From Vicinamibacterales bacterium (GTDB taxonomy: Bacteria; Acidobacteriota; Vicinamibacteria; Vicinamibacterales; SCN-69-37), in assembly GCA_039925145.1 (NCBI GenBank), contig JBDSZL010000018.1:441-64440 (forward strand): 64,000 bases of DNA, in the 5' to 3' direction. Positions 8,357 to 60,288 of the stretch are shown here, piece by piece (the first letter of the stretch is position 1; each line of letters starts with the position of its first letter). Below the pieces are notes generated by a model. The model was not told the origin of the DNA and did no database searches. It saw only the letters and a program-made list of their open reading frames with translations. The position numbers and the translations under genes were made by a program.

Positions 8357-8358
8357 CC

Positions 8359-9291: not shown

Positions 9292-9340
9292 GCGTGGCCC
9301 GTGGTGGAGAGACCGCCCGCACGTCGTAGGAGGACCTTCG

Positions 9341-10303: not shown

Positions 10304-10539
10304 GTAGGCCCAACCCACAGCTCGGACGTCAGGCACGATCGGCGCGAGTACGACCGCCGGCAAAATCTCCATTGCTCGCCGGGCCCACGACGCCCCGTCC
10401 GCGCCATGTCTACTTGCTTCCGCACGCCGCTCCACACCCGCGGCGCTCGGGGCGCGATCGCGTTTGAATGGCGCGCCCAATCGAGTGTAGAGTCCACTGT
10501 GTTCGAGGCGACACAATCGACAATCAATTGCGACAGAGG

Positions 10540-11586: not shown

Positions 11587-11616
11587 ACGGACGTCACAGC
11601 ATCGAGGGCCGCCCTG

Positions 11617-13077: not shown

Positions 13078-13096
13078 CGCTGGCGCGCCGCCCTGG

Positions 13097-13747: not shown

Positions 13748-13911
13748 ACGTGCTCCTCAGAAGACCAGCGCCAACGACGCGGCCCGCATCCATGACTTCG
13801 AGGCCACAGACCTCGATGCTACACTGCCGCGATGACAAACAGGCCAGCGATTTCGGCCGCGAGGGCATGCCGTCGCCACACGATAGCCGCGGGGCGCGGT
13901 AACCGAACGAA

Positions 13912-45843: not shown

Positions 45844-45884
45844 CGATAGACCGCGGTCGGAATCTTCCGGCTCCGCGCTGTGCC

Positions 45885-45930
45885 GCGGGAATCGAACCCG
45901 CACGTCGCTTGCGCGACTCAGGATTTTAAG
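45885..45930 (-). other. Orphan copy of tRNA-Leu(UAA) 3' part (anticodon loop through T-arm); att-type direct repeat
   Basis: 46 nt identical to 47484..47529. Identity stops at the anticodon loop on one side. On the other side it stops before the acceptor 3' strand, which can only be aligned if 4 Gs of a G-run are deleted. Confidence 0.8.
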
Positions 45931-46137
45931 CCGGTCAGGGGCACTCTGTGAAAGGGACAGAGCGACGCGATTCGGCGTTTCTTGGCGCGTTTTCGCAAAT
46001 CGACGAGCGGACGGGGAACCTTGAAAACGCGTGAATGACGCTCCGTCCCTGCCAGTGGCCTGCCAGTAGCGAAGGGGGGCTCCGTGTCACGACCCTACGC
46101 CCGACGGCGGTATCATGCGTTGCGCGGAGAACGAATC

Positions 46138-46440
46138 ATGAGCCCTCACATTGTCATCGATCGCGAGGCCGTCTCCGCATTCTGTCGGCGGCATCACATT
46201 CTGCGGCTGGCTCTGTTCGGCTCCGTCCTCCGCGATGATTTTCGTTCGGACAGCGACGTCGACGTGCTCGTGGAGTTTCAGCCTGGACACGTGCCTGGGC
46301 TGAACTTCGTGAGCATCGAGCGCGAGTTCGCGAGCCTCTTGAATGGCCGGCGCGTGGACATGGTCACGCCGAAGTTCCTGAACCCCAGAATCCGCGATCA
46401 GGTGTTGAGCACCGCCGAACCGATCTATGTCGCCGCGTGA
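46138..46440 (+). CDS. mntA: Nucleotidyltransferase antitoxin MntA (type VII TA)
   Basis: LFGSVLRDDFRSDSDVDVLVEF minimal-NTase motif. Overlaps the downstream HEPN gene. Confidence 0.8.
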   Translation: MSPHIVIDREAVSAFCRRHHILRLALFGSVLRDDFRSDSDVDVLVEFQPGHVPGLNFVSIEREFASLLNGRRVDMVTPKFLNPRIRDQVLSTAEPIYVAA

Positions 46441-46774
46441 CATCGTTTACGTTGGGCACATGCTCGACATGGCGAGGAAGGCGGTGGGGAAGACTCAGGC
46501 GCTCTCACGGGCCACTTACGATGCGGACGAGAACCTTCGCCTGGCTCTGACGCATCTGGTCCAAATCATCGGTGAGGCCGCCCGCAACGTATCTCGCAAG
46601 TTCTGCGACGACCACCCGGCGATTCCGTGGACCGACATCATCGGCATGCGGCACAAAGTCGTGCACGACTATCTCGGCGTTGATGAGGACATCGTCTGGC
46701 AGGTCGTCACGGAGGACCTGCCCAAGCTGGTATCCGCGCTCGAGCCACTCGTCCCGCCGTCCGGCGGCGACTGA
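46427..46774 (+). CDS. hepT: HepT-like HEPN ribonuclease toxin (DUF86)
   Basis: Rx4HxY motif RHKVVHDY. 14-nt overlap with mntA. Confidence 0.8.
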   Translation: MSPRDIVYVGHMLDMARKAVGKTQALSRATYDADENLRLALTHLVQIIGEAARNVSRKFCDDHPAIPWTDIIGMRHKVVHDYLGVDEDIVWQVVTEDLPKLVSALEPLVPPSGGD

Positions 46775-46801
46775 AGGGGCTAGAGTGTCTACGAGGCATC
46801 A

Positions 46802-46996
46802 ATGTCAGACCAGACACTGATCGAGAAGATTCAGAGCCTGCCGCCGGAGCGGGTCGAGGAGGTCGAGGACTTCGTCGATTTCCTCAGGACTCGCGATCAG
46901 GACCGGGCTCTCGTCCATGCTGCCGCTCGACTCTCTGAGGACGCGTTCCTCAAGGTCTGGGACAATCCGGACGATGCCGAGTACGATCGGCTCTAA
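46802..46996 (+). CDS. DUF2281-like type II antitoxin
   Basis: LIEKIQSLPPERVEEVEDFVDFLRTR pattern. Overlaps the start of the toxin remnant. Confidence 0.6.
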   Translation: MSDQTLIEKIQSLPPERVEEVEDFVDFLRTRDQDRALVHAAARLSEDAFLKVWDNPDDAEYDRL

Positions 46997-47300
46997 GTTC
47001 GGCGACGTCGTCCTCGTCCCCTTTCTGTTCACGGACCAAACGGCCTCGAAGAGAGGCCCGCAGTCGCTGTGAGTTCTGACGCCTACCACCTTGACCGTTC
47101 GGACGTCGTCCTCCTGGCCGTCACGAGCCGGATCATCAGTCAGGCGACGACGGTCGGGGAACCTCCTGATCGAAGAGTAGCTCGAGGCCGGGCTCTTGAG
47201 GCCTCACTGATCAAGCCCGTGTTCACCACCGTCGAGCAGGGGCTGATTCGCAAGAAGCTGGGTGAGCTTCAGCGACGATCGAGCGGGGGAAGGCCGGACG
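46974..47300 (+). pseudogene. Frameshifted PemK/MazF-like toxin
   Basis: ATG 46974 gives MPSTIGSKFGDVVLVPFLFTDQTASKRGPQSL then a stop. Homology continues in the next frame (VSSDAYHLDRSDVVLLAVTSRI...LIKPVFTTVEQGLIRKKLGEL). That frame lacks a proper stop and reads on through the tRNA. Confidence 0.55.
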
Positions 47301-47472
47301 GCGGAGTTGAGGGTGCCGTCCTCGTGAGATCGCAACGACCTGGCAGCCGTCGAGCGGGTGGTGCCGGACGGGGAGGTTGCGTTGGCGGTCGGCGCTGTCC
47401 CGTTGAGGCGCTCTTGCCGACGGCCCCCAACGCGGGGTGTCCGGCGACAGGACCCGATCGACGAGGTGATCG

Positions 47473-47561
47473 TGGTGCCGGGGGCGGGAATCGAACCCGC
47501 ACGTCGCTTGCGCGACTCAGGATTTTAAGTCCTGTGCGTCTGCCAGTTTCGCCACCCCGGC
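47473..47561 (-). tRNA. tRNA-Leu (anticodon UAA), type II, CCA encoded
   Basis: Folded by hand: acceptor GCCGGGG/CCCCGGC, D-stem GCG/CGC, anticodon stem CAGGA/TCCTG with loop CTTAAAA, long variable arm GTCGC-GCAA-GCGAC, T-arm GCGGG-TTCGATT-CCCGC, then ACCA. Confidence 0.9.
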
Positions 47562-47589
47562 GTATGTTTAGAATCAATCACTTACACTG

Positions 47590-48699
47590 CTACGCGCCTC
47601 GCTTCTTGCCCCGTTTCTGGTCCAGTGTGCCCGAAAGTGTGCCCGCCGCCTGATCAATCTTCGCCGCCGCGTCTCTCAGTGCGCCGGCATCGACGATCGC
47701 ATACCGGCGGTAAATCGCCTCGGTCTTGTGGCCGACCATCGCCATTGCGGCCGACCGCGACACGCCGACGTGTTCGAGGTTCCGAACCGCCGTGCGCCTG
47801 AAGTCGTGCGGGATGCGCCCCGGCTGACCGGCAGCCACGCAGGCCGCCTGCCACGAGCCGCGCATGCTCTTAATCGGCTCGCCGTCACGGTGGAACACGT
47901 GGGGAACGATCTTGCCAGCCTTCTTGAGCCGCTTGTGATCGTCCAGTTGCGTGGTCAGCAACGCCTCCAGGGCAGCCGTGAACGGGTAGCTTCGGCCTTC
48001 CCGGTTCTTGGTCGTGCCAGGGTCGAGCCGCACGACACGGTTGTTCCAGTCGACCTGACGCCACTGCAAGGGCAGGATCTCGCTCTTGAGCCGCCAGCCT
48101 GTGATGTGCGCGAACGTCGCAACCGGCTGCAGCGCGGCCGGGAGGTGCGAGACCACACCGCGGAACTGTTCTGGCTCGAAGAACCCACGGCGGACGTTGT
48201 CCTCCTCGAGCATGGGAATGTGTGGCTTCGCGTGGAGCTTTCGATCCTTGACGGCCAGGGAGAACATCCGTTTCAGGACGGCGAGTTCACGATTGATCGT
48301 GCCATTGGCCGCACCCTCCGCTTGCCGCGCCGTGATGTACTCCCGGACCACTGATGTCGTAATCGCCAACAGCCGGCGGCCCTTGAAAGTGGGGGAGAGG
48401 TGTAGGTCGATGCGACGTTGCGCATCGCCCAGCGATCGCCGCCCGTTGATCTGGTAGTCGTTGATGATGTCCTTCGCCGCGTCCTCGAACGTAATGCGGC
48501 CCATCTTCGGCTCGATCGGCACGCCGTGCTCGACGTCGCCCTCTCGTGACCGGAGCATCCGGCGCGCCGCGCCTTCCTTCGTGCTGCCCGTGCTCTCTCG
48601 GACGGAGCGCCCATCCTGGTAGAACTTGATCCACCACGTCGGCAGCTCGCGAACGGTGCCGTCTGTCTGCTTCTTCGTGCGGCGGTAGATGCTACCCAT
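47590..48699 (-). CDS. int: Tyrosine-type site-specific integrase
   Basis: N-terminal SAM-like/arm-binding region. Catalytic C-terminus ...HDFRRTAVRNL...MVGHKTEAIYRRYAIV (R..HxxR..Y). Confidence 0.9.
   Translation of the reverse strand: MGSIYRRTKKQTDGTVRELPTWWIKFYQDGRSVRESTGSTKEGAARRMLRSREGDVEHGVPIEPKMGRITFEDAAKDIINDYQINGRRSLGDAQRRIDLHLSPTFKGRRLLAITTSVVREYITARQAEGAANGTINRELAVLKRMFSLAVKDRKLHAKPHIPMLEEDNVRRGFFEPEQFRGVVSHLPAALQPVATFAHITGWRLKSEILPLQWRQVDWNNRVVRLDPGTTKNREGRSYPFTAALEALLTTQLDDHKRLKKAGKIVPHVFHRDGEPIKSMRGSWQAACVAAGQPGRIPHDFRRTAVRNLEHVGVSRSAAMAMVGHKTEAIYRRYAIVDAGALRDAAAKIDQAAGTLSGTLDQKRGKKRGA
47624..47644 (+). promoter_or_regulatory. Two direct AGTGTGCCC 9-mers (candidate integrase arm-type sites, P' side)
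   Basis: 47624-47632 and 47636-47644, 12-bp phasing, about 100 bp from the core. They lie in the int 3' codons, giving the GTLSGTL peptide repeat. Confidence 0.45.
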
Positions 48700-48761
48700 G
48701 GGTTTCCGTCCGTTCTCCGCTCATCCCTGAGGCTGCCGACCGTAAGAGGGCGTCGAGCGCG

Positions 48762-49076
48762 TCAACCCGTTTGCTCTGGCCCGCTCACGTCCACCCCTCG
48801 CGACCACAACCACTGCACGACAACGGCGCTGCCTCTCGTTCCCGCGAGGAGCCTCGCACACGCGCTGTCCCGCGCGAGTGGACCCGGCGGCAGGTGGTCT
48901 TTGATCTCGCGTTGTACGGCGTTCCACTCGGTCGGGCTTGGTAGCCGCCGGTCCATCCGGTCGGCCCCCGTCCAGAGGACCGCGCCGTACCGCGCTTCGA
49001 GACAGAGCAGGCCCATGCCGGCAGCCCGCCCTGTCTCCAGCGACGACAACACAAAGCAGGTCGCCTGTAGTGTCAC
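48762..49076 (-). CDS. Hypothetical protein (island)
   Basis: GTG start overlaps the upstream stop (GTGA). High GC3 and protein-like composition. Preferred over the Arg-rich alternative frame. Confidence 0.4.
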   Translation of the reverse strand: MTLQATCFVLSSLETGRAAGMGLLCLEARYGAVLWTGADRMDRRLPSPTEWNAVQREIKDHLPPGPLARDSACARLLAGTRGSAVVVQWLWSRGVDVSGPEQTG

Positions 49077-49267
49077 TGTCTGGCTTCCTGTGTTTCGATC
49101 TGCCCAAGCAGCCCGCTGACGATCTCGTCCATCACGCTCACGGCTCGCGGCCTCAACCGGCAGAGCCGCTCAAGCTTGACATGCACCGTATCAAGGTCTC
49201 GCGTTGGGCTTGGAGTCGCGTCCAAACTGGTGATGGCTTCCATTCGGAATCGTCCATTGACGATCAC
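49073..49267 (-). CDS. Hypothetical small protein (island)
   Basis: 4-nt overlaps with both neighbouring genes. Confidence 0.4.
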   Translation of the reverse strand: MIVNGRFRMEAITSLDATPSPTRDLDTVHVKLERLCRLRPRAVSVMDEIVSGLLGQIETQEARQ

Positions 49268-49638
49268 TTCTCACCGCCTTTGAATGACGACGCGAACGGC
49301 TGAGGCCCGAGCCGCTTGCCGACAGCCACGCCGAGTCCGTACGCCAAGATCGTGTATGGCGCTAGGAAGGCATAGATGACGTCCGTAATCTCGTCTCGTT
49401 GATCGTTGGTTCGGGGGCCGATCAGCGGCAACAGGGTTTCGATGTTGAAGTTCACCACATCCGGCGCTATTTGAAACATGTGGTGCTCAACCCCACCGTC
49501 GCTAAACAAGGCGAGCGCACCCTCTCTCGCGATGAGGTTCGCCGCTGCGCCGTCTAAGCTGTCCACGTAGCGCAAGAGAGCGGCTTGGTTCTGGGGGGTC
49601 GGGAATGCCGGTTTGCCCGGCTTCGGTGCGGCGCTCAC
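49264..49638 (-). CDS. Hypothetical protein sharing a C-terminal motif with 49635..50024
   Basis: C-terminus AYGLGVAVGKRLGPQPFASSFKGGEK versus FTLGIAIGRRLGSAPLRSRKGGAK in the upstream gene. 4-nt overlap. Confidence 0.5.
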   Translation of the reverse strand: MSAAPKPGKPAFPTPQNQAALLRYVDSLDGAAANLIAREGALALFSDGGVEHHMFQIAPDVVNFNIETLLPLIGPRTNDQRDEITDVIYAFLAPYTILAYGLGVAVGKRLGPQPFASSFKGGEK

Positions 49639-50024
49639 TTCGCACCGCCCTTCCGCGATCGAAGGGGAGCCGAGCCTAGGCGCCGCCCGATGGCAATCCC
49701 TAACGTGAAGGCAGTATCGGTGCGCTCCGAGAGTTCGGCGATGTGGAGATCATCGAGCTGATTCACGTCCACAGCTCCTTCTGACTTGAGGTGTTCTTCC
49801 ATCCAGGCGCTGACTGCTTGTGCGGGCTTCGGGTCACTGAGTCGCTCCACTGCGGACGCGAGCGGCTCTGGGTCCTCCCCGAATACCCCGGCAGAGAGAA
49901 TCAGGCCGATGGCCTCGCGATCAAAGCGGCCTTCGAGGTCGTTAATGACGGAGTCGATGAACGTGTCCAGCGCTGTGTCTGCGGGGATCGTGGTCTTCTT
50001 TTGTTTTGGCATGGGCCTCTCCAA
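49635..50024 (-). CDS. Hypothetical protein sharing a C-terminal motif with 49264..49638
   Basis: See 49264..49638. Acidic, helical-looking. Confidence 0.5.
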   Translation of the reverse strand: MERPMPKQKKTTIPADTALDTFIDSVINDLEGRFDREAIGLILSAGVFGEDPEPLASAVERLSDPKPAQAVSAWMEEHLKSEGAVDVNQLDDLHIAELSERTDTAFTLGIAIGRRLGSAPLRSRKGGAK

Positions 50025-50087
50025 CGGAATGGAAGGCCGAGAGGCTACACTGACGCAGCCCTCGGCACGGGTACGACGTGCTACGGG

Positions 50088-50273
50088 TTAGGACCGCTTG
50101 CGGGTAGCAGCCCGCTTGCGGTCCGTCTTCTCTCCCTGGTCCACTAACCAACGATCGACGGCGATTCTGACTTGGCTCGAGATGGGCGCGCCCGTCTTTG
50201 CTTCGATCCGCCGCAACGCCTCGAGTTGTTCAGGCTCGAGGAGCATTTGAAATCGCTGTTTCGCAGGTGACAT
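50088..50273 (-). CDS. Ribbon-helix-helix (CopG-like) DNA-binding protein
   Basis: KQRFQMLLEPEQLEALRRIEAKTGAPISSQVRIAVDRWL is a typical RHH layout. First gene of the int-proximal operon. Confidence 0.6.
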   Translation of the reverse strand: MSPAKQRFQMLLEPEQLEALRRIEAKTGAPISSQVRIAVDRWLVDQGEKTDRKRAATRKRS

Positions 50274-50287
50274 AAAGAGGATGCTTA

Positions 50288-50316
50288 ACTATACACAACT
50301 ACGCTGATATAGTCAA
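50288..50316 (-). promoter_or_regulatory. Sigma-70-type promoter for the RHH operon
   Basis: Minus strand reads TTGACT-N17-TATAGT (50316-50311 and 50293-50288). Only 14 nt separate the -10 from the ATG at 50273, so the leader is very short with no SD. The -10 is part of an ACTATA/TATAGT inverted repeat. Confidence 0.5.
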
Positions 50317-50565
50317 CGACGAAACGGCTACGATTTCGCGCACACAGACAGACGAGCCGTGCTGCCCGAACACTTCGACGTCGCAGCCTGCGTGTTGTGG
50401 GTCACGAAGGGCGACGAGCCAGACGCGAAGGTGTAACGGAGGCGGCCTCGAAACCAAGGCCCCGCTCGTGTGCTAGCATCTCCGCTCTTCACTGCCCCTG
50501 GGTCGGTTTCAGGCTGGCTAAGTGCGACTGCCCCTCGCTTCGCGCGGAGAAGGCTATTCCATCCG

Positions 50566-51804
50566 ATGTCGACATCAGCGATTCCCTTTTTCGGCGCCCG
50601 CAAGCTTGCTCGTCAGCTTCAGGAGCAGGTAACGGACCTCACCGCTCAATTGGAGCGTACGGATGCCTTTGCCGTGGGCGAACTGGAGCGCCTAAAGGTG
50701 CGCCTCGAACAAGACGTTGCCGGCCTACGGGCGCAGCTTGCCGAGGCCCAAACGCTCATTGTTTGTACGGACGAAACGGCGTCCCTTCAAGAAGTCGGTG
50801 TATACGAATATCGTCATCCTCTATCTGTTGCCGCGGCATACCGCGATCGTCTAGAGGCCATCCAACGGCAAATCAAGGAAATGAATAGGGCCGACGCCGG
50901 TGCGATTCTGGCAAGCGCAGACTGGAAGGTGAACGGGTCGCTCGTGGAGGGCCGCAAAATGGTCCGGCAGTTCTCGAAGCTGATGTTGCGGGCGTTCAAC
51001 GCGGAGGCCGACACGCTCGTCAGGGGCCTGAAGCCGTATGCACTCGACAAAGCGGTTGAACGACTGCATAAGACGGCCCACACGATTCAGCAACTCGGCC
51101 AGACTATGCAGATCAGTGTCGCGCCTGCGTACCTGAAGGTTCGCTTCTTCGAACTCACCTTGACGGCTGATTTCCTGCAGAAAAAGGCTGAGGAAAAAGA
51201 GGTTGAGCGCGTCGAACGCGAACGCCTGCGTGAGGAACGAAAGGTGCAGCTCGAAATTGAGCGCGAGCAGGCCAAGCTTGCGAAAGAGCGTGAGCACTAC
51301 GAGCGGGCGCTGGCCGCGCTATCTGCCATCGGCGGCGCCGACGAGGCCATCGCGAGGCTCAAGAGCCAGCTGGATGACGTCGACAAGGCCATCGCAGATA
51401 TGAACTACCGCGCTGCGAACATTCGTGCGGGCTACGTCTATGTGATCTCAAACGTCGGATCGTTTGGCGACAACATCGTGAAGATCGGACTCACGCGGCG
51501 TCTTGATCCGCGAGACCGGATTCGCGAGCTCAGTGATGCGTCCGTCCCATTCAACTTCGATGTGCATGCCCTCTTCTTCTCCAAGGACGCGGTCGGGATA
51601 GAGACAGCCTTGCACAACCAATTCTCCGCTCAGCGCATGAACCTCGTAAACCGCCGGCGGGAGTTCTTCAGGGCGACGGCCGCTCAGGTGAGAGGGGCCC
51701 TAGTCTCCCTTGCTGGAGACCTCCTGGAATTTGAAGACATAGCTGAGGCCCTCGAGTATCGACAGTCCGAACACGTCAGAACAGGGACCACGACGGCGAA
51801 CTGA
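50566..51804 (+). CDS. DUF4041 plus T5orf172 (MUG113, GIY-YIG-like) domain protein
   Basis: Coiled-coil N-terminal part (EKEVERVERERLREERKVQLEIEREQAKLAKERE). C-terminus GYVYVISNVGSFGDNIVKIGLTRRLDPRDRIRELSDASVPFNFDVHALFFS is the T5orf172 signature. Confidence 0.7.
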   Translation: MSTSAIPFFGARKLARQLQEQVTDLTAQLERTDAFAVGELERLKVRLEQDVAGLRAQLAEAQTLIVCTDETASLQEVGVYEYRHPLSVAAAYRDRLEAIQRQIKEMNRADAGAILASADWKVNGSLVEGRKMVRQFSKLMLRAFNAEADTLVRGLKPYALDKAVERLHKTAHTIQQLGQTMQISVAPAYLKVRFFELTLTADFLQKKAEEKEVERVERERLREERKVQLEIEREQAKLAKEREHYERALAALSAIGGADEAIARLKSQLDDVDKAIADMNYRAANIRAGYVYVISNVGSFGDNIVKIGLTRRLDPRDRIRELSDASVPFNFDVHALFFSKDAVGIETALHNQFSAQRMNLVNRRREFFRATAAQVRGALVSLAGDLLEFEDIAEALEYRQSEHVRTGTTTAN

Positions 51805-51964
51805 AGAATAAGGCAGCCGCGAACGTGACACGACTGGCATCTCGCAGCCGGGCCCCGCATCAGAACGGGGCTACTGCTTCGCACAGACCAGACACACGAA
51901 CGCCTCAATACGTAGTCCCGCTGGATCAGCAGGTCCTCGCCACAGCCAGGACAGCGCGGGATCA

Positions 51965-52246
51965 TCACAAGCGCTCGATGACCGGCACGCGACATCGGGT
52001 CGGAAACCTCCACACCTCGATCGTCGCGTTCCGCGGCCGGACCATGATCTGCAACGCCTCGCGCTCGATGCTGCTGGCGTAGCGGCTGCCACTCTTCACA
52101 CTGACGAACCGGATCGACGTAGCATCCCACGCGACCAGATCGCACGGCCCCTTCGAGCCCGCCGAGCGCGTGACGTGGAACCCATCCGCTTCCAGCAGCC
52201 GACGAGCCCGATGCTCAGCCCGCCGGCCCTTGTGCGCGCAGTTCAT
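51965..52246 (-). CDS. PD-(D/E)xK-fold nuclease, Hjc-like resolvase candidate
   Basis: KGRRAEHRARRLLEADGFHVTRSAGSKGPCDLVAWD...FVSVKSG (E...D...xVK layout). Start ATG 52246 overlaps the upstream stop (ATGA). Confidence 0.5.
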   Translation of the reverse strand: MNCAHKGRRAEHRARRLLEADGFHVTRSAGSKGPCDLVAWDATSIRFVSVKSGSRYASSIEREALQIMVRPRNATIEVWRFPTRCRVPVIERL

Positions 52247-52443
52247 GGACGGTCCCAGTCGAGGGTCGCCCCGCTGATCGCCCGCTCCGCGCGGCGCGCG
52301 CGGCGACAGTCCGGGCAGCGCCGCGGAAGTGATAACTGCTTCGCCTCGAAAAATGCCGCTTCGCCCTCCGTGACGGTGAACGGCGTGGTGCAGTCGAGAC
52401 ACAGGCGCTGCTCTAACACGGTCTGGTTTCGTGGGAGCGTCAT
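52243..52443 (-). CDS. Zinc-ribbon protein
   Basis: CLDCTTPFTVTEGEAAFFEAKQLSLPRRCPDCRR. Confidence 0.55.
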   Translation of the reverse strand: MTLPRNQTVLEQRLCLDCTTPFTVTEGEAAFFEAKQLSLPRRCPDCRRARRAERAISGATLDWDRP

Positions 52444-53237
52444 CGGTGCGTCCCGCGCGCCATCGCTTCGCCTTCCGGCGAACTCCCAAAGACCGGCTCT
52501 TTGCGGGGTGCCGCCGCTGGTTCCTCCGGGACCGGGGCATAGCCCGTGCCGTCGAGCTCGTGCTGCGCCATGTTCACCGCCGTCGAGAGCGCCGTGTACC
52601 GCTGATTGAGGCCATCGAGATATTTCGAGACCGGGCTCTTGGCGACCTTGACCTCTGTGGCCTTGGCGCGCTGCTCAGCTGTGACGAGCGCGAACGTGCC
52701 ACCAGGTCCCGCCTCAACGGCTTCAACGAACACCGGATCGCTGCCGTCCTGGACAGCCGTGATGTACCGCTCATACCGTTCTTCCGGTGTGAGTCCTCGC
52801 AAGAGGCTTCGATACTCCGCTTTCAGCAGCTCGCTCGCGATCGTGGGCTCGGCGGGTTTCTGCGCCGGCTCCCATCCCGCCTTGCTCTTGACATAGCCTT
52901 CAGCGGCCAGACGCCGCCCATCCGTCCACTGTTTGTGCAGCTCGGCCGCGTGCTTGCGAAACGCCGTCAAGTCTTCGTCGAGCTTCGCGCGGATCTTGTC
53001 GATCGCCGTCGCCTTGCCGCGCTCGGTGAGATCAGGATTGACGAGAATCTTGTCCACCGCGCGCCAACTGTCATCCACAAACGCCGAGATGTTCCCGACG
53101 GCGTTCACGGTGTACGTTTTTTCGTCCTCGGTCATACCTTCGTGCGCGGCCCAATTTCTCGCGTAGCCCGCCGCCATCGAGCGGATGAAACTCGCGCCCC
53201 GTTTCGGGGCCTTCCCGTTGTTCGCGTTGTTTGCCAT
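52440..53237 (-). CDS. Phage-type protein of unknown function
   Basis: Follows terL with a 10-nt gap. At 265 aa it is too small for a portal. No domain recognised. Confidence 0.5.
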   Translation of the reverse strand: MANNANNGKAPKRGASFIRSMAAGYARNWAAHEGMTEDEKTYTVNAVGNISAFVDDSWRAVDKILVNPDLTERGKATAIDKIRAKLDEDLTAFRKHAAELHKQWTDGRRLAAEGYVKSKAGWEPAQKPAEPTIASELLKAEYRSLLRGLTPEERYERYITAVQDGSDPVFVEAVEAGPGGTFALVTAEQRAKATEVKVAKSPVSKYLDGLNQRYTALSTAVNMAQHELDGTGYAPVPEEPAAAPRKEPVFGSSPEGEAMARGTHR

Positions 53238-53247
53238 TTCTGTCTCC

Positions 53248-54672
53248 TCAGAATCCTCTCAATTGAATCGCGCCGCCGCCGTTGCCCCCACCGGCCGCGG
53301 TCAGTGTCAGCGCGCCCGCGGCCGCATTCGCCACGTCCTCATGCATTCGTGGCGGTGCGTCCACGCTGTCTTTGCCCTGCCGGCCCTTGCGGCGTTCCAG
53401 CGAGCCGAACTGCTTCAAGAGCCGCGGGTGATCGAGCAGCTCCACTTGGCCGCTCATGACTGCGGGCAGCACGGCCAGGTACAACTCAGAGCGCGTACGC
53501 TCGGACGGTTTGACCGTGATCCCCACCTTCGAGAACGCTTCAACGGGCCAGTGCCCAGCAAAGCGATCAGAGGTCGCCGTGGTGACGCGATACGCCTTCA
53601 TCGTGGCGGCGAACTCCTGCACCGTCGCTTCCGGCGAGAACGGCGGCCGCTGCTCACGCACGAGATCGAGCACGGCCACCGAGCCGTGACGGTGAGCAAT
53701 CGCGAGCGTCATCGAATCCGCTCCCGTGCCCCCGGCTGGATCGAGAAACGCGGTGTACGTGATGCCGTACTGCGGCGGCTGCTCGAGCCGCCCAATCATC
53801 CGCACCGCCTCCAACGCTTCAGGCGGCAAGAAGGCTTCCACGTCGCGCCGCCACTCGCCGCCCCACTCCGCAGACGCAGCAACAGGGTCGTCGGCGTACG
53901 CGGCCTCGATGACGGCCAGCTCAATACTCGGATTCAGCAACAGCGTCGGCGCATTCACCACCAGCACGCGATCACTGTCGTCTTTGCCGTAGAAGCGCTC
54001 GTACGTCCTCCAGGCTTCGCCGCGCCGCGCGTAAGGCGATGTGATGCACACAAGCAGCGCCTCGGGGACCGTGCCCATCGCGGCACGCAACGCGACGAGC
54101 ACTTCTCGGTCAGGGTTCGCGCTGTCCTCCGAATCCCAAAACGCAATTTCATCGCACGTCGCGCCGATGCAGGTGTAGCCGCGCAGCGAGCGGTACGAGT
54201 TCGTGTGAATCTCAATCACCACGCCGCTGGTCAGCGTGATCGCGTCGGCGGTTTCATCCTCGACTAAGGCGGCGAGCACGGGCGTCGAATGGAGCAGTCC
54301 GCTCACGTAGCGCTTGAGGACGCGTGCCTGCCGGCGATCGGCTGCGAGGACCATGAACACGCCCACTTCACCTGGTGCGAGCGTGTATGTGCGGCACGTG
54401 GTCGCCCAGACCGCCAGCGCTGCGCTAATGATGGACTTGCCCGAGCGCCGGCCGCAGATGATCCAGAGTTCGGCGAGTGTGGCCGGGACGGTCGAGCGCC
54501 CCGTGAGCTGGTGCATGAGCGCGCGCCCATCGTCATCGAGCGCGCCGAGCCCGTCATCGATCGCCGTGAGCAGCGTGCGCCACGCGTGCCAACTGTCGCC
54601 CGCGAACGTCCCACTGAGCACGCCCGTCATGAGCCGGACGATGGAGCCGAGCGTGGTGGAGACGCGGCTCAT
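53248..54672 (-). CDS. terL: Terminase large subunit
   Basis: Walker A CGRRSGKS, Walker B-like TCDEIAFWD, and C-terminal RNaseH-like nuclease FLDPAGGTGADSMTLAI. Confidence 0.75.
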   Translation of the reverse strand: MSRVSTTLGSIVRLMTGVLSGTFAGDSWHAWRTLLTAIDDGLGALDDDGRALMHQLTGRSTVPATLAELWIICGRRSGKSIISAALAVWATTCRTYTLAPGEVGVFMVLAADRRQARVLKRYVSGLLHSTPVLAALVEDETADAITLTSGVVIEIHTNSYRSLRGYTCIGATCDEIAFWDSEDSANPDREVLVALRAAMGTVPEALLVCITSPYARRGEAWRTYERFYGKDDSDRVLVVNAPTLLLNPSIELAVIEAAYADDPVAASAEWGGEWRRDVEAFLPPEALEAVRMIGRLEQPPQYGITYTAFLDPAGGTGADSMTLAIAHRHGSVAVLDLVREQRPPFSPEATVQEFAATMKAYRVTTATSDRFAGHWPVEAFSKVGITVKPSERTRSELYLAVLPAVMSGQVELLDHPRLLKQFGSLERRKGRQGKDSVDAPPRMHEDVANAAAGALTLTAAGGGNGGGAIQLRGF

Positions 54673-55256
54673 TGCCCGCCTCGCATGACTTGCTCCAACG
54701 TGGCGACCGGCTTCGGTTTCCGGGAGAGCCCCAGCTGATTTGTGAGGCGTGCGAACTGAGCCAACACACCGAGGTACGCCGTCAACGCGGCACGCTGCCG
54801 GCCTTTGGCAGTCAAGGTGCCGTTGACGAGCAAATCTTGGCCGAGCGCTTCGAGGATGACTTCTAAGCGCGCCGCCTCACGGACCGTCGCCGTCGACAGG
54901 TGTGACAACTCATCAGAGCCGCCCAGATCCCCTGTAATCAACGCAACAGCCTCAGCGTGCCATTGGCCCACTTCGGGCGCGTCGATCAACTGGCGCGAAC
55001 GTAGGCCCGTTTTGAGCGCACCGCCGTTCCCCATCCCGAACCGGCCATTGCCTTCGCGCCCTCGATGGCGGATGGCACCGACGGCCTTGCGGGCTTCCTC
55101 GAACAGTTCAGGGCCAGCGGCCGGGAGTTCCGCGAACGGTGGAGCAGCGCTATTATGAGTGGGCACACTGCGGGCACACTCTAGTGAGTTCAGGCCCATT
55201 TCATCGGCCTGAATCACAGACGCGCAGGACTGACTATCCTGTGCGAGCTTAGACAT
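54669..55256 (-). CDS. terS: Terminase small subunit candidate
   Basis: GNGGALKTGLRSRQL ... TAKGRQRAALTAYLGVLAQFARLTNQLGLSRKP resembles actinophage-type TerS. 4-nt overlap with terL. The true start may be as late as ATG 55034. Confidence 0.45.
   Translation of the reverse strand: MSKLAQDSQSCASVIQADEMGLNSLECARSVPTHNSAAPPFAELPAAGPELFEEARKAVGAIRHRGREGNGRFGMGNGGALKTGLRSRQLIDAPEVGQWHAEAVALITGDLGGSDELSHLSTATVREAARLEVILEALGQDLLVNGTLTAKGRQRAALTAYLGVLAQFARLTNQLGLSRKPKPVATLEQVMRGGQ
55161..55180 (-). promoter_or_regulatory. Two AGTGTGCCC 9-mers in opposite orientation to the att-proximal copies
   Basis: Plus strand reads GGGCACACT at 55161-55169 and 55172-55180 (11-bp phasing), upstream of or inside the 5' end of the terS candidate. 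Confidence 0.35.
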
Positions 55257-55629
55257 ACTTGGCTCCCGTTTGCTGAGGTGAGATAGAGGGTGTGACCGCT
55301 CGCTTTTGGGTCTGTCCTGGCCCGTCCTTCAGGCTCTCGATGAACGCGTCCAGGTCCGCCCGGTCAATCACCACACGTCGCAGGCTTGTCTTGGGCCTGT
55401 CGCCTTCTCTGGCTCTGAGGGCAGGAAGGTGAATGAGTGGCAGTCGTCCAGCGAGCGCCCAGTCACGAACTGTCCATGCGCTCACGTTGAGGTACTCGCC
55501 GGCTTGCTTGAGGCTCAGCAGCCGTGGTGTGACAGCTTCTTTTTGAACCTGACCTGACAGCCCCCTTAAGAGGGGGGCAGTTGTCATGTCACGAGTTGTG
55601 TGACGTGTGTCACGGGGTGTCAGTGACAT
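55249..55629 (-). CDS. Excisionase-family / MerR-like helix-turn-helix DNA-binding protein
   Basis: LLSLKQAGEYLNVSAWTVRDWALAGRLP. Confidence 0.6.
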   Translation of the reverse strand: MSLTPRDTRHTTRDMTTAPLLRGLSGQVQKEAVTPRLLSLKQAGEYLNVSAWTVRDWALAGRLPLIHLPALRAREGDRPKTSLRRVVIDRADLDAFIESLKDGPGQTQKRAVTPSISPQQTGAKYV

Positions 55630-55632
55630 GTG

Positions 55633-56913
55633 TCACGCACTCCTTTCGAGCAACGCCACGCGGCCATCAGTGCCACGTGCGAACAGCCGAACTTTGTTCC
55701 GGCGTCGAGCGTCGTCCTCGTCACGGCGTAGGGTTTGAATAATGCTGTTTGCCTTGACGCCGAGTTCTTCGGCCAAGTCCTCGATGGGACGTGGGCCGGC
55801 CTGGAGGCTGTAGCGAAGCCGCTGGCGAATGGGGAGGTCGGCCGCGATGTCCTCGATGCCGGCGGGGTTCACTTGCCGGATTGTGATCTCGTCGCCCGTG
55901 AACAAGTATTCGATGGCGGCCGGCGGCCGCGGTTGCCCGTTGGTCTTCCGCTGAGTGATAGCCGTCACGAGTGCGCGGGGATCGTGGTCGCTGTTGCTGC
56001 GTCGAAAGTGGTAGATGTCGCGGCCGCCGGCATACCAGAGCACGGAGCCGAACGGGTAGCGGTCGCCGCCCTCGCCTTTGGACTGGTGCGCCACGAGCAG
56101 CAGCCCAATCCGAAGCTGTCGGCACGCCTGCAGGAAGGCGCTGGCAACCTCTGCAGACTCAGGGGGGCCAGAGACGCCAAACGAGACACTGTCGATCACG
56201 GCATAGTCCCATCCGTCGTTGATGACGGCACGCCGCAGGCTGTCGATCTCGGCGACGAGTGGGCGCTCAACGCGGATGTAGCGGATGTCGGGAAACTGCG
56301 GGCCATACATCCCCCGCGCCCGCTTGCGGTGTGCCTCTGGGCCCCACTCAAAATCGATGTAGCCGACACGGCGTCCAGTCCGGCGCGCCTCCAAAGCCAC
56401 ACGCTCAGCCTGCAGGGTCTTGCCGCTGCCAGGGAGACCGTAGAACATCGATATCTGCGTGAGGTCCAGGGTGAGCCCGTCGCACTCGAACAGTGACGTG
56501 CGCTCGTCGCTGTCTTCGATGTCGTGCAGGCTGACGATGGCGGAGGCCGAACGCTCAGCTTCTAGGACGCGAATACAGGCGTCCTCGACCAGCCTTGAGA
56601 CGGGAATATCTGAGAGCATGGCCTCGCGCGTGATGCGTGTTGCCCGCTCGGACCGTGCCCGGTCGCTACTCACGTTGAAGGTAGCCTGCGAGACGATGTC
56701 GCCAGAGACCGTTTGTACGCCGGGCAGCGCACAACGTACGGTCAGTTCACAATTCAGCTCGTCCCATTTCCAGCGCAGCCGATCAAAAGTGAAGGTCAGG
56801 CCGATGCTGTTCGCCTCGTAGCGGTACGCCACGCCACGAGCGAGCACGACAAGATCTCGCGTGCCGCACTCCAGGAGCGTCAACCGCTCAGCCACGCTGG
56901 CGCTCACGCTCAC
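55633..56913 (-). CDS. RecA-like (AAA_25/RepA-type) replication ATPase with C-terminal winged-helix
   Basis: Walker A GLPGSGKT, Walker B DYAVIDS, LLLVAHQSKG. C-terminus IEDLAEELGVKANSIIQTLRR. Confidence 0.65.
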   Translation of the reverse strand: MSVSASVAERLTLLECGTRDLVVLARGVAYRYEANSIGLTFTFDRLRWKWDELNCELTVRCALPGVQTVSGDIVSQATFNVSSDRARSERATRITREAMLSDIPVSRLVEDACIRVLEAERSASAIVSLHDIEDSDERTSLFECDGLTLDLTQISMFYGLPGSGKTLQAERVALEARRTGRRVGYIDFEWGPEAHRKRARGMYGPQFPDIRYIRVERPLVAEIDSLRRAVINDGWDYAVIDSVSFGVSGPPESAEVASAFLQACRQLRIGLLLVAHQSKGEGGDRYPFGSVLWYAGGRDIYHFRRSNSDHDPRALVTAITQRKTNGQPRPPAAIEYLFTGDEITIRQVNPAGIEDIAADLPIRQRLRYSLQAGPRPIEDLAEELGVKANSIIQTLRRDEDDARRRNKVRLFARGTDGRVALLERSA

Positions 56914-57238
56914 GCTCCCGAAGGTCGTCGATCGTCTGGTCCTTTTCGACCGTCAGCGCGACTGAGGCACAGAGTATGGCCTCAAGCATCTCAATACGCT
57001 CGGCCATACCAACGGCGGCCAGAGCTATCTGCTCGTCGCATGTCTCCGGGCCGGCCCCGCGCATTAGATCGAGGATGTGCTGCGCTGTGAAGCGATAGCG
57101 TTCGCCGCGCTCGGCTGCCGGTGAGAGTCCCCACCGGATATTGAGGCTGTCTGTTTGCGCGTCTGTTAGTATTGGGTTCATAGGCTGCGTCTCCACCGCA
57201 GCTTCGAGGCCGGCGCCATGCAAGTCCTGCAGGCGCAC
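56888..57238 (-). CDS. Hypothetical protein (island)
   Basis: ORF between the Cro-like gene and the ATPase. The start may be ATG 57181. Confidence 0.4.
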   Translation of the reverse strand: MRLQDLHGAGLEAAVETQPMNPILTDAQTDSLNIRWGLSPAAERGERYRFTAQHILDLMRGAGPETCDEQIALAAVGMAERIEMLEAILCASVALTVEKDQTIDDLRERERERQRG

Positions 57239-57253
57239 GGCCTCTCGCCGTTT

Positions 57254-57469
57254 CTAGGCGCTTATTGCTTTCTGCTCCGCGAAACACTCGCTGCCAGGCA
57301 CCCCGACGAGTTCGGCCAACTTGAGAACGCGTTCGTCGCCTTCACGCGGGTCATAGATCCCGCAGATCCAGGCACTGAGGGTTCCGTGACTGACACCAAT
57401 CTCGCGCGCCAACTGGTACTGACGCGACGTATGTCGCCGAACGGCGGTAATCAGGCGGTCACTCAACAT
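57254..57469 (-). CDS. Cro/XRE-type HTH regulator
   Basis: TSRQYQLAREIGVSHGTLSAWICG. Confidence 0.65.
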   Translation of the reverse strand: MLSDRLITAVRRHTSRQYQLAREIGVSHGTLSAWICGIYDPREGDERVLKLAELVGVPGSECFAEQKAISA

Positions 57470-57563
57470 CGGGGTAGCTCCATGCCGGCTATGTCATCAA
57501 AAGCAAAAACACTCTGCAATCTGTTTTACAATTGATGAACCCATGACAATGGGAGGAGCACAA
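57470..57563. promoter_or_regulatory. Divergent switch region between the Cro-like and CI-like genes
   Basis: AT-rich relative to its surroundings. Inverted repeat TCATCAA (57494-57500) / TTGATGA (57532-57538) and TGTCAT/ATGACA. Confidence 0.5.
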
Positions 57564-58184
57564 ATGAAACGGACTCGTGATGAGAAGTTGGCGCACGGAC
57601 GGTTTGCGATTGGGCCGCGATCGTCGTACTGGGTCGTACTGCCGTTCGCGGAGGGCTGGCTTGCGGCTCAGCGGCTCATGGTGCAGGAAAATGGTGCCGT
57701 GACGGTCGCTGAGTTGCGGGTCTATCCAGCAGAGGACAGGCGGCGCAAAGTCGGGCAGTGGTCGGAGTCGGCGGCGTCCATACCGAAAGGAGGTCTGTCG
57801 GCTTCGTTATTGCGGAGCCTCTCGGTGGGGGGAGCGGCCACGTCTCCCGTAGTGACCGACTGGGTTCAAGCGATGCTCAGCGAGACATTGCGCTGGCCTG
57901 CGCGTCATCGAGCGCTTGCGAAACGGGTCGCGCGTGACTTGGACCTACCGCGTGCGACAGACAAGAGTACCGTCCATCGACGCGGCCGAAAACCGTCACG
58001 AGATCGGGAGTTCTATCAATCGGTCGCCGCGCACTATAGGCGTTGGATCAGCGATAACCCTGCGAAGAAGATTGCAGAGACTCATGGCGTCAGCGGAGCA
58101 ACGGCTCGCACGTGGATTCACACAGCGCGCCATAAGTACGGACTGCTGGCAGCGACAGCAGCCGGGCGCCTGCCACCGAGCTAG
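57564..58184 (+). CDS. Putative repressor-like DNA-binding protein (C-terminal HTH)
   Basis: ATG 57564 behind GGGAGGAG. C-terminus AKKIAETHGVSGATARTWIHTARHKYGLL. Divergent from the Cro-like gene. Confidence 0.5.
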   Translation: MKRTRDEKLAHGRFAIGPRSSYWVVLPFAEGWLAAQRLMVQENGAVTVAELRVYPAEDRRRKVGQWSESAASIPKGGLSASLLRSLSVGGAATSPVVTDWVQAMLSETLRWPARHRALAKRVARDLDLPRATDKSTVHRRGRKPSRDREFYQSVAAHYRRWISDNPAKKIAETHGVSGATARTWIHTARHKYGLLAATAAGRLPPS

Positions 58185-58299
58185 AACAGGGAGGGTGTGC
58201 CGCCAGGGTCCCCATCGGGACCACCTACTTGTCGGCCCCGCCTAGCCATTTTCCGTTCAGTGCTGGATTAAACTTATGGGTGAACCGAGTAAATCGAAA

Positions 58300-58701
58300 T
58301 CAGCCCGGATCGGAAGGCGCAATCTCCCACGTTGGATCGATGGCTGCGAACAGGAGCGCCCGCCGACTGTTAACCTCAAGCGGACTCCCCTCAAGCCCAT
58401 GAACGTCCGTGTGGGCTCGGTTGTTGCGGTCCTCGTCGGGAGTGTGAACGACGGACAGGCCCTCGACCCCGCGCACTGCGGCAACCCCCAGTTTCACGAC
58501 ACCATAGTTGCTCGGAGGCTGCGGTCCGCATCCGCGGGTATGTCGAGCGGATGAGTATTTTCCCCAGTTGGTTGACATGCCACCCTCCCGGGACTTGAAT
58601 ACTGGAGGCTTCACAGCCCCTCCGGCCGCTTGGTGCTTGTGAACACGATAAAACAGGCAGCAAGAGTCAATGATCGGCTCTGGCTTCCACGGACGATCCA
58701 T
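58300..58701 (-). CDS. Cargo protein C, unknown function (133 aa)
   Basis: Third gene of a tight operon, 2 nt after gene B. LFYRVHK..GGMSTNWGKYSS..GVVKLGVAAVR..VVHTPDEDRNNRAHTDVHG. No family recognised. Confidence 0.55.
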   Translation of the reverse strand: MDRPWKPEPIIDSCCLFYRVHKHQAAGGAVKPPVFKSREGGMSTNWGKYSSARHTRGCGPQPPSNYGVVKLGVAAVRGVEGLSVVHTPDEDRNNRAHTDVHGLEGSPLEVNSRRALLFAAIDPTWEIAPSDPG

Positions 58702-58703
58702 CG

Positions 58704-59393
58704 TTATGAGTTGAGGGCCTGGACAGCAACAACGTACGAGTCATCATTGTCCAGGTACTCAGATTTCGTTAACTTGCCAGCCCGAACAAAGGAGAATGTC
58801 GGTGCGTGGGAAATGTCAGCGGCCGGGACGTTGATGAGAACGACAGTGGCTCCGTGGCTCCAAAAGACATCGATACTTCCTTGACCGTTCGGGGCGACCG
58901 AGGGAACGGGCAGGAACATCGAAATCAGATCGGCTGTGTCGGCGAGCTTCCGTAGAGTGGCGACAGCGTTCTGCCAAGTGGCCGCAGTTACTGCGGGGCT
59001 GCCCTCGCCATCCCAGTCGTCCGAGAGAGACTGAATCCAAGCTGATGAGCGGATTGCACGCTCTAGTTCCTTGCGCCAGGGAGAGACTGGCTCTCCGAAC
59101 CTCATGATCATCCGCTCGAGCGTCAGTTGCCTAACCGTCTCCCCGACGCTCGAAGTGTCAAGATTGACGACAGTGGGGCTACGAGTACCGAACTCGAATT
59201 GCTCCAGCAGTCGGGGCGAGATCGGCATCTCGGTGGAGTGCATCTTGCCTATTAGAGTAGAGGCGTCGTCCCACCTCAGGAGCGAGACGAGCCGCTCGAT
59301 GCCACCAGCGCCGTCTGACTCTAGTCCCAGTTCGATCTTGGGAAAGTCAGTTGGAGAAGCGCAGAGATCTACACCTTCAGTAGTCATTGCCAT
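58704..59393 (-). CDS. Cargo protein B, unknown function (229 aa)
   Basis: 10-nt overlap with gene A. C-terminal half SLSDDWDGEGSPAV...PVPSVAPNGQGSIDVFW. No family recognised. Confidence 0.55.
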   Translation of the reverse strand: MAMTTEGVDLCASPTDFPKIELGLESDGAGGIERLVSLLRWDDASTLIGKMHSTEMPISPRLLEQFEFGTRSPTVVNLDTSSVGETVRQLTLERMIMRFGEPVSPWRKELERAIRSSAWIQSLSDDWDGEGSPAVTAATWQNAVATLRKLADTADLISMFLPVPSVAPNGQGSIDVFWSHGATVVLINVPAADISHAPTFSFVRAGKLTKSEYLDNDDSYVVAVQALNS

Positions 59394-60064
59394 CCAAAGA
59401 GGTCCTTCTCGACATAACTAGAGAAATCCGTCATCAGTTCGGAGAACCTGCCGATCGCTGCTAGGCACGTCTCCGCACCGTCAACATCGATGTGATAGTT
59501 GGCCCTAACCAGAATCCCGTGACGCACCGTCGTGTGCGTCTCTCCCTCCATGCGAGTTACTTCGCGCGTCACAGTTCCCGCCGATAGCGTTGCGCGCATG
59601 TTTAGGCCGGCTCGCTGGTACCGGAACTGAAGCTCTGCGTCGGTTGGCCGCTGGCTTCCAGAGTTCCAGGCCCCTGGTTGAACAAACCTGTCTAACAGGT
59701 AGGTGGCGGCCTCGCCTTGCTCTTTGAAGGCAATGGGATTGCAACCAACACCCGTGTATTTCACTTTTGGCAGCGCCGCGACGTATGCCGCAGCGACTAC
59801 CGGCAGGACATCGACGGGCTTCGCCGAATCGATTTCCGGATCCAGACTGTCCCACTTCACGATGAGCCGTTGAGGTTCACAGCGGAAGGAAATCCCGCTG
59901 CTGAAACCGCACTTTGACAACGCTGGGGTGGAAAGGCCCTCGTCGATCACTTCCCAGTCAGCCGGCACAATGCCCTCTGCCTTCAGAAATGACGGGTGAA
60001 GAATCGACGGATTGTGGGCTGAAGCGACCACAACAACCATGGCCATAGGGATCTCGATCGACAT
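59384..60064 (-). CDS. Cargo protein A, unknown function (226 aa)
   Basis: First gene of the operon, next to attR. Beta-rich looking. No family recognised. Confidence 0.55.
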   Translation of the reverse strand: MSIEIPMAMVVVVASAHNPSILHPSFLKAEGIVPADWEVIDEGLSTPALSKCGFSSGISFRCEPQRLIVKWDSLDPEIDSAKPVDVLPVVAAAYVAALPKVKYTGVGCNPIAFKEQGEAATYLLDRFVQPGAWNSGSQRPTDAELQFRYQRAGLNMRATLSAGTVTREVTRMEGETHTTVRHGILVRANYHIDVDGAETCLAAIGRFSELMTDFSSYVEKDLFGWQ

Positions 60065-60121
60065 CTTGTTAAGGCCATTCTAGTCGCTGCGGAACCCCAC
60101 GCCGCGTATTAGGCCAGGACG

Positions 60122-60206
60122 GGTGTGCCCACGAGTGTGCCCACCGCCCACCCAAAGCCGTCATTCTCCACCCAACGGCAACCAAGTTGCGGCAGGGAGT
60201 GTGCCC
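60122..60206 (+). promoter_or_regulatory. Three (A/G)GTGTGCCC 9-mers (candidate integrase arm-type sites, P side)
   Basis: 60122-60130, 60134-60142 (12-bp phasing) and 60198-60206. They lie 128, 116 and 52 bp from the core, in the same orientation as the pair at 47624-47644. Confidence 0.45.
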
Positions 60207-60249
60207 GTAGAATCGACGTTTTCCCGCCAGTTCTGAGGCACGACAAGCC

Positions 60250-60288
60250 TTTTAAGTCCTGTGCGTCTGCCAGTTTCGCCACCCCGGC
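60250..60288 (-). other. Orphan copy of tRNA-Leu(UAA) 5' half (nt 1-39, acceptor 5' strand through the anticodon loop); attR repeat
   Basis: 39 nt identical to 47523..47561. Identity ends exactly at tRNA position +1 and at the loop. Confidence 0.85.

Follow-up and report, generated by a model that had tools for sequence, protein, structure and literature searches.

The gene for tRNA-Leu(UAA) occurs three times, once entire and twice in part, in a 64,000-nucleotide stretch of DNA from a soil acidobacterium, a member of the Vicinamibacterales (GenBank assembly GCA_039925145.1, contig JBDSZL010000018.1, positions 441 to 64,440 of the forward strand; the whole stretch is called the window). The three sequences delimit two inserts: X, which encodes a tyrosine integrase and lies on the 5' side of the intact gene, and the shorter Y, on its 3' side. 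The question raised by the locus is whether this layout was created by one mobile element carrying a tRNA gene of its own, or by two elements which targeted the same gene. It is quite likely that a single tRNA-Leu(UAA) gene received X and Y independently, each by site-specific insertion at the anticodon loop, and that the gene now at work is chimeric.

A single tRNA gene, tRNA-Leu(taa), was identified by ARAGORN in the 64-kb window, at 47473-47561 on the minus strand. Rfam matches the same tRNA-Leu at 61 bits, and nothing else in the window reaches the gathering threshold; both programs agree with the initial annotation, made from the sequence alone, in which this gene was described as intact. 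The gene measures 89 nt and encodes CCA. In the numbering used here the anticodon stem is formed by nt 28-32 paired with nt 40-44, and the loop, CTTAAAA, by nt 33-39. The exact copies reported in the annotation were retrieved by a repeat search of the window, both at 100% identity: 46 nt at left (45885-45930, equal to 47484-47529), and 39 nt at right (60250-60288, equal to 47523-47561), the latter extending to 42 nt at 98%. The right copy corresponds to tRNA nt 1-39, the left copy to nt 33-78, and the two overlap in the 7-nt anticodon loop only, as had been noticed. No other tRNA-Leu pieces longer than 11-15 nt were found in the 64 kb by short-word BLAST with the tRNA and 40 nt of flank. Read in the tRNA sense, the order is host DNA, native 5' half (60288 to 60250), X, intact tRNA, Y, 3' fragment (45930 to 45880), ThuA gene and host DNA.

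The displaced 3' fragment (45880-45930, minus strand) is exact for nt 33-78 (45885-45930), and continues with GGCAC past a 4-nt deletion in the acceptor 3' strand. The acceptor region reads GTGCC-GGGG-GCGGGAATCG in the intact gene, and GTGCC-GCGGGAATCG in the left copy. The loss of four Gs, assumed in the initial annotation, is borne out by the alignment: the left copy goes on with GTGCC once four of five Gs are removed, and five more bases match beyond the gap, which are, in tRNA sense, GGC, the discriminator A and C. GGC is left ahead of the discriminator. CCA is encoded by the working gene (47473-47475), and is not encoded in full by the displaced fragment (45877-45879), nor by the gene found at the corresponding position in the related locus L125 (2490-2493), which fits an element-derived 3' end of the working tRNA.

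X (47562-60249, minus strand) covers the 12,688 bp comprised between the 39-nt direct repeats. It is a 5'-side integrative element of apparently intact structure, about 12.7 kb long, with a content reminiscent of satellites or defence islands. The integrase gene (47590-48699, minus strand) encodes 369 aa and reads toward the tRNA; the product matches Phage_integrase (PF00589, 5e-14, above the Pfam cutoff) and PHROG 1 (2e-43). Residues R203, K231, H298, R301, H324 and Y333 are all present, and are invariant in an alignment of 37 sequences. The integrase stop codon (47590-47592) is separated from the tRNA 5' end by 28 nt (47562-47589), the spacing given in the annotation. X displays the features of an Islander-type tRNA gene (tDNA) island: an intact tDNA with a 5' fragment upstream on the same strand, a tyrosine integrase inside, and a size, 12.7 kb, in the 2-200 kb range.

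Seven copies of the nonamer GGGCACACY are present in the window, every one of them in X; none of 100 shuffles reached seven. A tandem pair is found in the integrase tail, three copies are found at the far end, and one inverted pair is internal (55161-55180). The tandem GGGCACACT pair (47624-47644, minus strand) is located within the 3' coding tail of the integrase, where it encodes GTLSGTL, and may provide the integrase-side arm-type sites; counterpart pairs were found in the integrase tails of five related loci (L062, L078, L116, L129, L148). The three far-end motifs, a tandem pair plus one (60122-60206, minus strand), are non-coding, lie 44-128 nt from the presumed crossover, and are candidates for the arm-type sites of the far side. 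Between the integrase stop and the tRNA lies TAAGTGATTGAT (47573-47584, minus strand), which matches the consensus YAANNNNTTGATW of sites for integration host factor (IHF), and which, like its general form TAAGTnnTTGA(T/A), is a candidate IHF site. The identity block of X ends at nt 39 and that of Y starts at nt 33, those of relatives ending at nt 40-42 or starting at nt 29-32; the crossover of X may fall in the 7-nt anticodon loop.

An additional att-like site (55161-55241, plus strand) is found inside X. It consists of the internal GGGCACACT pair, inverted and in tandem, 38 nt, and CAGGA-CTGACTA-TCCTGTGCG, that is, the arms of the anticodon stem around a different 7-nt spacer. It falls within the first 100 nt of the open reading frame (ORF) 54669-55256 on the minus strand, directly past the stop of the excisionase-like gene, and could either serve the integrase in regulation or be the relic of an attachment site.

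Homologues of the X integrase are numerous (5240 at E < 1e-20). Relatives were examined in 80 metagenome loci and 38 viral-contig loci. In about 44 loci, which include the window and the integrases P0003 and P0004 of loci L118-L121, the integrase stop lies next to a tRNA gene. In 32 of them tRNA and integrase converge, the usual 3'-side layout; in the other 12, including the window and P0003, it is co-directional and starts 11-71 nt downstream, a 5'-side layout. Repeats were delimited for two independent 5'-side elements, a 7.9-kb one (L062) with a 45-nt repeat covering nt 1-40 of tRNA-Leu(UAG), and a 10.6-kb one (L129) with a 45-nt repeat covering nt 1-42 of tRNA-Leu(UAA). In nine further 5'-side loci (eight metagenome loci besides L062, plus P0003) the integrase stop precedes the co-directional tRNA by 11-33 nt. 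Displaced fragments on the 3' side were found in L053, L078, L093, L116, L128 and L148, so that both layouts are confirmed by such fragments.

All mapped elements, in either orientation, have a 9-mer of their own, which is repeated in tandem in or just past the integrase tail, and found again about 100-200 nt inside the far junction. Six of 12 5'-side and 6 of 28 3'-side loci have the motif TAAGTnnTTGA(T/A) at a distance of 13-25 nt from the tRNA, against 0.26% of random 60-nt windows. Because repeats and motif are common to both classes, the integrase-side arm appears homologous in 5'- and 3'-side elements, the difference being the tRNA half that follows. A conserved ATTGAT upstream of the tRNA was considered as promoter element and rejected, as TAAGTnnTTGA precedes also the tRNA 3' end in 3'-side elements. 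A sigma-70 consensus scan of the 28-nt spacer with the integrase tail, and of the native upstream region, is uninformative here and gave no promoter.

In a neighbour-joining tree of 39 sequences 5'- and 3'-side members are interleaved. The clade of the window integrase includes L084 (5'), L065 (3'), the window (5'), P0003 (5'), P0004 (3') and L038 (5'). A subgroup associated with tRNA-Phe (L053, L066, L086, L095, L098) is peculiar, as the integrase ORF extends 65 nt into the tRNA gene, and for this reason the integrase C-terminus would change on excision. A change of this kind has reportedly been observed for Mx8 IntP.

Four independent assemblies (L118-L121) feature a tRNA-Leu(UAA) gene set between two integrases of the family. 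The stop codon of P0003 precedes the tRNA 5' end by 31 nt; that of P0004, which is encoded on the opposite strand, follows the tRNA 3' end by 13 nt. The two proteins are 74% identical, and each is about 71% identical to the window integrase. It follows that both sides of tRNA-Leu(UAA) can hold members of one integrase family. No displaced tRNA fragment was found within the 10-kb flanks of these loci. The integrase-tRNA-integrase block (about 7700-13950) is bracketed by inverted copies of an insertion sequence (IS) of the IS256 family (Transposase_mut). A flanking block containing DruA lies on opposite sides in L120 and in L118, L119 and L121, as if the centre had been inverted between the IS copies.

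The native position of the gene is indicated by a relative devoid of islands. The gene order of L125 is that of the right flank of the window, with a small gene, a hydrolase (74% identical), DinB and NfeD. An uninterrupted tRNA-Leu(UAA), in the same orientation, is present where the window has nt 1-39 only, and its 5' half is identical to that of the window. Since L125 holds an intact gene there, the native upstream side is at 60289 onward, not at 47562 onward, and the sequence at 60250-60288 (minus strand, nt 1-39) is best viewed as the displaced native 5' half. The initial annotation had placed the original upstream region at 60289 onward, to be checked by alignment with relatives lacking the inserts, and in this one relative the placement is correct. 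Its description of the integrase-bearing element as one lying on the 5' side and duplicating the 5' half agrees likewise with the layout of the X arm sites, with L125, and with the independent 5'-side elements L062 and L129.

Y (45931-47472) measures 1542 bp and is bounded by the 46-nt direct repeat. It may be the decayed remnant of an ordinary 3'-side island. An integrative origin is favoured by the repeat, which in Y, like in relatives on the 3' side, starts precisely with the first base of the loop, by a 9-mer pair found at the usual distance of far-side arms in the family, and by the position of the deletion in the displaced fragment, which is a described site of damage. The pair is an exact tandem duplication of CCTGCCAGT (46048-46067, plus strand), 118-137 nt from the crossover; pairs lie at matching distance at the far ends of L093, L078, L129 and L062, and the pair may be the far-side arm of Y. 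The complement of the Y 9-mer (ACTGGCAGG) resembles the tRNA D-arm ACTGGCAGA, a resemblance which may be due to chance (one-mismatch matches in the window are 28 against 16 expected).

Two toxin-antitoxin modules were recognized in Y. The first includes a predicted MntA-type nucleotidyltransferase antitoxin (46084-46440, plus strand; Pfam NTP_transf_2 1e-12; start probably called at 46138 in the contig L001 described below) and a predicted HepT-type HEPN RNase toxin (46427-46774, plus strand; Pfam HepT-like 2e-23). The genes overlap by 14 nt; both Pfam matches are above cutoff, the NCBIfam equivalog scores, that of MntA included, below it. As adjacent, overlapping MNT and HEPN genes, they conform by sequence to a type VII toxin-antitoxin pair. 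Next to them are a small, intact VapB/DUF2281-like antitoxin gene (46802-46996, plus strand; NCBIfam TA_VapB 4e-5, below cutoff) and a PemK/MazF-like toxin pseudogene (46993-47370, plus strand), assigned to the family by motif recognition (GDVVLVPFLFTD..., ...LAAVERVV) and interrupted in three-frame translation by a stop codon and frameshifts; here (46802-47370) the antitoxin has outlived the toxin. HepT homologues are 80-91% identical and reside in unrelated chromosomal contexts. They are not linked to tRNA genes elsewhere, and the cargo of Y consequently says nothing on its origin.

The history proposed for the locus starts from an X attachment site in which the integrase tail, with its tandem arm-type repeats, is followed in this order by the IHF-like site, by tRNA nt 1-32, by the 7-nt loop, where the crossover would take place, and by a far-side arm with more repeats. 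X would have recombined with the chromosomal tRNA-Leu(UAA), and come to lie upstream of the tRNA. The copy carried by X would have substituted for the native 5' half and its promoter region, and left the native half stranded at 60250-60288. Y, a 3'-side island, would have supplied nt 40-89, and displaced the native 3' part to 45880-45930, where 4 nt were later lost. Y would then have lost its integrase and kept the toxin-antitoxin genes, the trimming having presumably been limited by two indispensable parts, the tRNA 3' part on one side and the toxin-antitoxin genes on the other. If the two insertions took place, the working gene would be a chimera of two mobile elements, with nt 1-32 from X and nt 40-89 from Y. 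The order in which X and Y were inserted, and any current mobility of the two, are matters of inference. The initial annotation had set out the same scheme, with an old 3'-restoring island at left and a 5'-restoring element at right. For the right-hand element a separate insertion is well supported by the arm layout and by the relatives; the left-hand island was carried over as a conjecture, Y having neither an integrase nor an integrase-side arm.

Several observations weigh against this history. No integrase or integrase remnant was detected in Y by tblastn with 120 family integrases, and neither an integrase-side arm nor an IHF-like motif was found next to the tRNA 3' end. Y lacks the integrase of an Islander island and, at 1.5 kb, is shorter than the 2-kb minimum; it can be called a remnant at most. 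Homologues of the HepT/MntA genes elsewhere, to judge from the contexts of two HepT homologues (P0242, P0255), have no link to tRNA genes or integrases. Between the Y-borne and the displaced 3' tRNA parts there is no difference, even in the variable arm, a region that varies among relatives, so that either a very close lineage was the source of the tRNA segment of Y, or a more complex history has to be assumed. The left flank is not anchored: in 30 related loci ThuA has neither a tRNA nearby nor conserved neighbours. One island-free syntenic relative was found (P0122/L125), no circular junction or empty site of the window strain was seen, and the window is a metagenome contig.

The alternative that fares best accepts X as described and denies that Y is what is left of a family island: a lost element would have left the fragment, the toxin-antitoxin genes arriving separately, or Y would be a small non-autonomous cassette moved in trans by another integrase. 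The lack of an integrase and of an integrase-side arm in Y, its size of 1.5 kb and the promiscuity of MntA/HepT modules, found in unrelated contexts, speak for it. It is nevertheless considered unlikely, as the repeat has the first base of the loop for its exact start, a feature of 3'-side members of the family, a tandem pair resembling a far-side arm lies at the expected distance, and a decay sparing an essential tRNA part and addictive toxin-antitoxin genes is a route that might be expected.

The initial annotation had also considered a single 14.3-kb element (45931-60249) which, carrying a complete tRNA-Leu(UAA) of its own, split the host gene at the anticodon loop, with no repair. The two partial copies do add up to one gene, except for the 4-nt deletion, and 9 nt in from the left junction there is one imperfect motif, GGGCACTCT. 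However, in every mapped family member, in both orientations, the tRNA segment abutting the integrase tail is an arm of the attachment site, whereas in a single element the crossover would fall 1.6 kb from the integrase. Such an element would hold a second full target site, inviting self-recombination. Moreover, its left end has no arm-type pair of the X motif, one-mismatch matches being at chance level (16 observed, 17 expected), and the tandem pair of Y is a different 9-mer. Two separate insertions are favoured over this scheme, which is judged very improbable, because the integrase-side arm of X fits the family architecture, and because tRNA-Leu(UAA) genes occupied on both sides exist elsewhere. 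An assembly artefact, in which the 39-46 nt repeats led to a wrong join in the metagenome contig (about 65 kb) and the three tRNA pieces do not lie on one molecule, deserves the least credit, as the Logan contig L001 (SRR26386590; 1,084 bp, equal to window 45901-46984 at 100%), though it breaks inside the left repeat, independently confirms the junction on the Y side at full identity, similar layouts are found in independent assemblies, multi-Mb contigs included, and the order and orientation of the repeats fit integration exactly. Judging from this match, the strain of the window is present also in run SRR26386590.

Integration on the 5' side is already known, and uncommon. Elements displacing a 5' fragment have been described by Zhao and Williams (2002, J Bacteriol 184:859, as cited in PMC6563490 and PMC1635311). 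Integration on this side is "considerably less frequent" than on the 3' side according to a statement in PMC6563490, and in the figures given in PMC4383910 islands with a 5' fragment make up about 4% of Islander (159 of 3919). In the initial annotation the layout was set against the canonical duplication of the 3' part; it does belong to a minority class, and is not unprecedented. X resembles known 5'-fragment islands in being upstream of the tRNA, in duplicating its 5' part, in having its own tyrosine integrase, and in the displaced fragment found upstream in the same orientation. In contrast to those, the 5' side is not rare in the X integrase family (12 of 44 loci), 5'-side members are interleaved with 3'-side ones, and the gene in the window is occupied on the 3' side as well. 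The presence of about one fourth of the family on the 5' side, among 3'-side members, may be new. In the literature no description was found of a high, phylogenetically scattered 5'-side share in an acidobacterial integrase family, of an integrase-side arm common to the two classes, or of a tRNA gene occupied on both sides.

As at anticodon-loop attachment sites of tyrosine integrases (site class A of Williams 2002 and Islander), identity blocks end or start at a 7-nt loop flanked by a palindromic stem; here, however, the same loop serves elements of the X family entering from either side. Tandem repeats on both arms of X, 45-150 nt from the core, and a motif resembling the IHF consensus between arm and core recall the integrases of the lambda type. 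Unlike them, X has its integrase-side repeats within the coding tail of the integrase itself, and the likeness is one of motif enrichment and placement. Displaced tDNA fragments recurrently show, as a type of damage, the loss of a few bases 3 bp ahead of the discriminator (Williams 2003, as cited in PMC4383910), and the displaced 3' fragment of the window has such a deletion. The initial annotation had considered it consistent with decay of a displaced half. It is indeed of this known type; simple slippage explains it equally well, because it falls in a 5-base homopolymer run.

The side of entry might be evolutionarily labile in this acidobacterial integrase family, the core being a palindromic anticodon stem: the integrase-proximal half-site CAGGA reads alike with either tRNA half next to it, inversion affecting the 7-nt spacer only. 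The idea is put forward tentatively and held to be unlikely to prove right. Doubly occupied genes, such as those of the window and L118-L121, could then be stages at which an element exchanges the tRNA half that it carries. As a corollary, in elements on the 5' side transcription of the host tRNA-Leu(UAA) may start inside the integrase gene, or the two may be transcribed jointly, across a gap of 11-71 nt, and the supply of a host tRNA would be tied to the element. Irrespective of this, the locus is a clean natural example in which neither tRNA half is apparently native, and in which 28 nt of element DNA, preceded by an integrase gene, have taken the place of the promoter region. Integrases 71-74% identical, with the same arm architecture, found on opposite sides of the same tRNA-Leu(UAA), make a tractable system for studying the direction of tDNA integration, and 5'-side elements one for asking how a target gene stays expressed. 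As to annotation, island finders which expect 3' fragments, or require an integrase, will assign wrong bounds to the locus.

Other genes of X include, on the plus strand, a DUF4041/T5orf172 protein homologous to the anti-phage defence protein PD-Lambda-1 (50470-51804; PADLOC PDLC03976 3e-112, residues 68-439; phrog_1847 8e-113; also matched by Pfam). A Hjc/Mrr-like nuclease adjoins it (50470-52540 for the two), and the pair may be anti-phage cargo. On the minus strand are found a terminase large subunit-like protein (53248-54672; phrog_2 3e-21; weak match to Pfam TerL_ATPase), a helix-turn-helix protein, HTH_17, resembling excisionases or regulators (55249-55629; Pfam HTH_17 1e-7; phrog_66 2e-10), and an AAA_25 primase/helicase-like protein (55633-56913; weak, Pfam below cutoff, phrog_239 1e-4). 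No capsid or tail genes were detected in X by family profile searches, and most ORFs have no family. In content X is closer to a satellite or defence island than to a prophage. It shares with phage satellites and defence islands (P4-like, or resembling phage-inducible chromosomal islands) the size, the integrase, the excisionase-like, primase/helicase-like and terminase-like genes, and the PD-Lambda-1 homologue; it differs in that no helper phage or packaging signal is known, and that its cargo is not common to relatives. What points to a phage satellite is the terminase-like and the primase-like protein. The HTH_17 gene, homologues of which adjoin the integrase in relatives, is the only one found in several of them; the terminase-like gene is matched in L159 alone, and ORF 54669-55256 in L128 alone.

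The locus is flanked by ordinary chromosomal genes. Beyond the 5' half, at right, are genes for an alpha/beta hydrolase, NfeD and an SPFH protein. The gene at 61956-62471 is called DinB-like on the basis of the Pfam DinB_2 match of its L125 counterpart, and an exact look-up of its product returned no record. Loci encoding two other hydrolase homologues, P0148 and P0125, showed no synteny with the window, P0122/L125 being the only syntenic one. No homology was found between the small genes which, in the window and in L125, occupy the position beside the tRNA. Beyond the 3' fragment, at left, are genes for ThuA, an aldo/keto reductase, TauE and a thioredoxin-like protein. A homology search with ThuA gave 36 loci, with identities up to 91%, none of them having a tRNA nearby or a neighbour in common with the window, and the homology ends about 20 nt short of the 3' fragment. 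By its ThuA relatives the organism would be placed among Bryobacterales-like Acidobacteriota. At the DNA level the ThuA gene (44950-45865) is 80-86% identical to genes of about 30 Bryobacterales-like metagenome-assembled genomes, as an isolated block of homology set in variable contexts.

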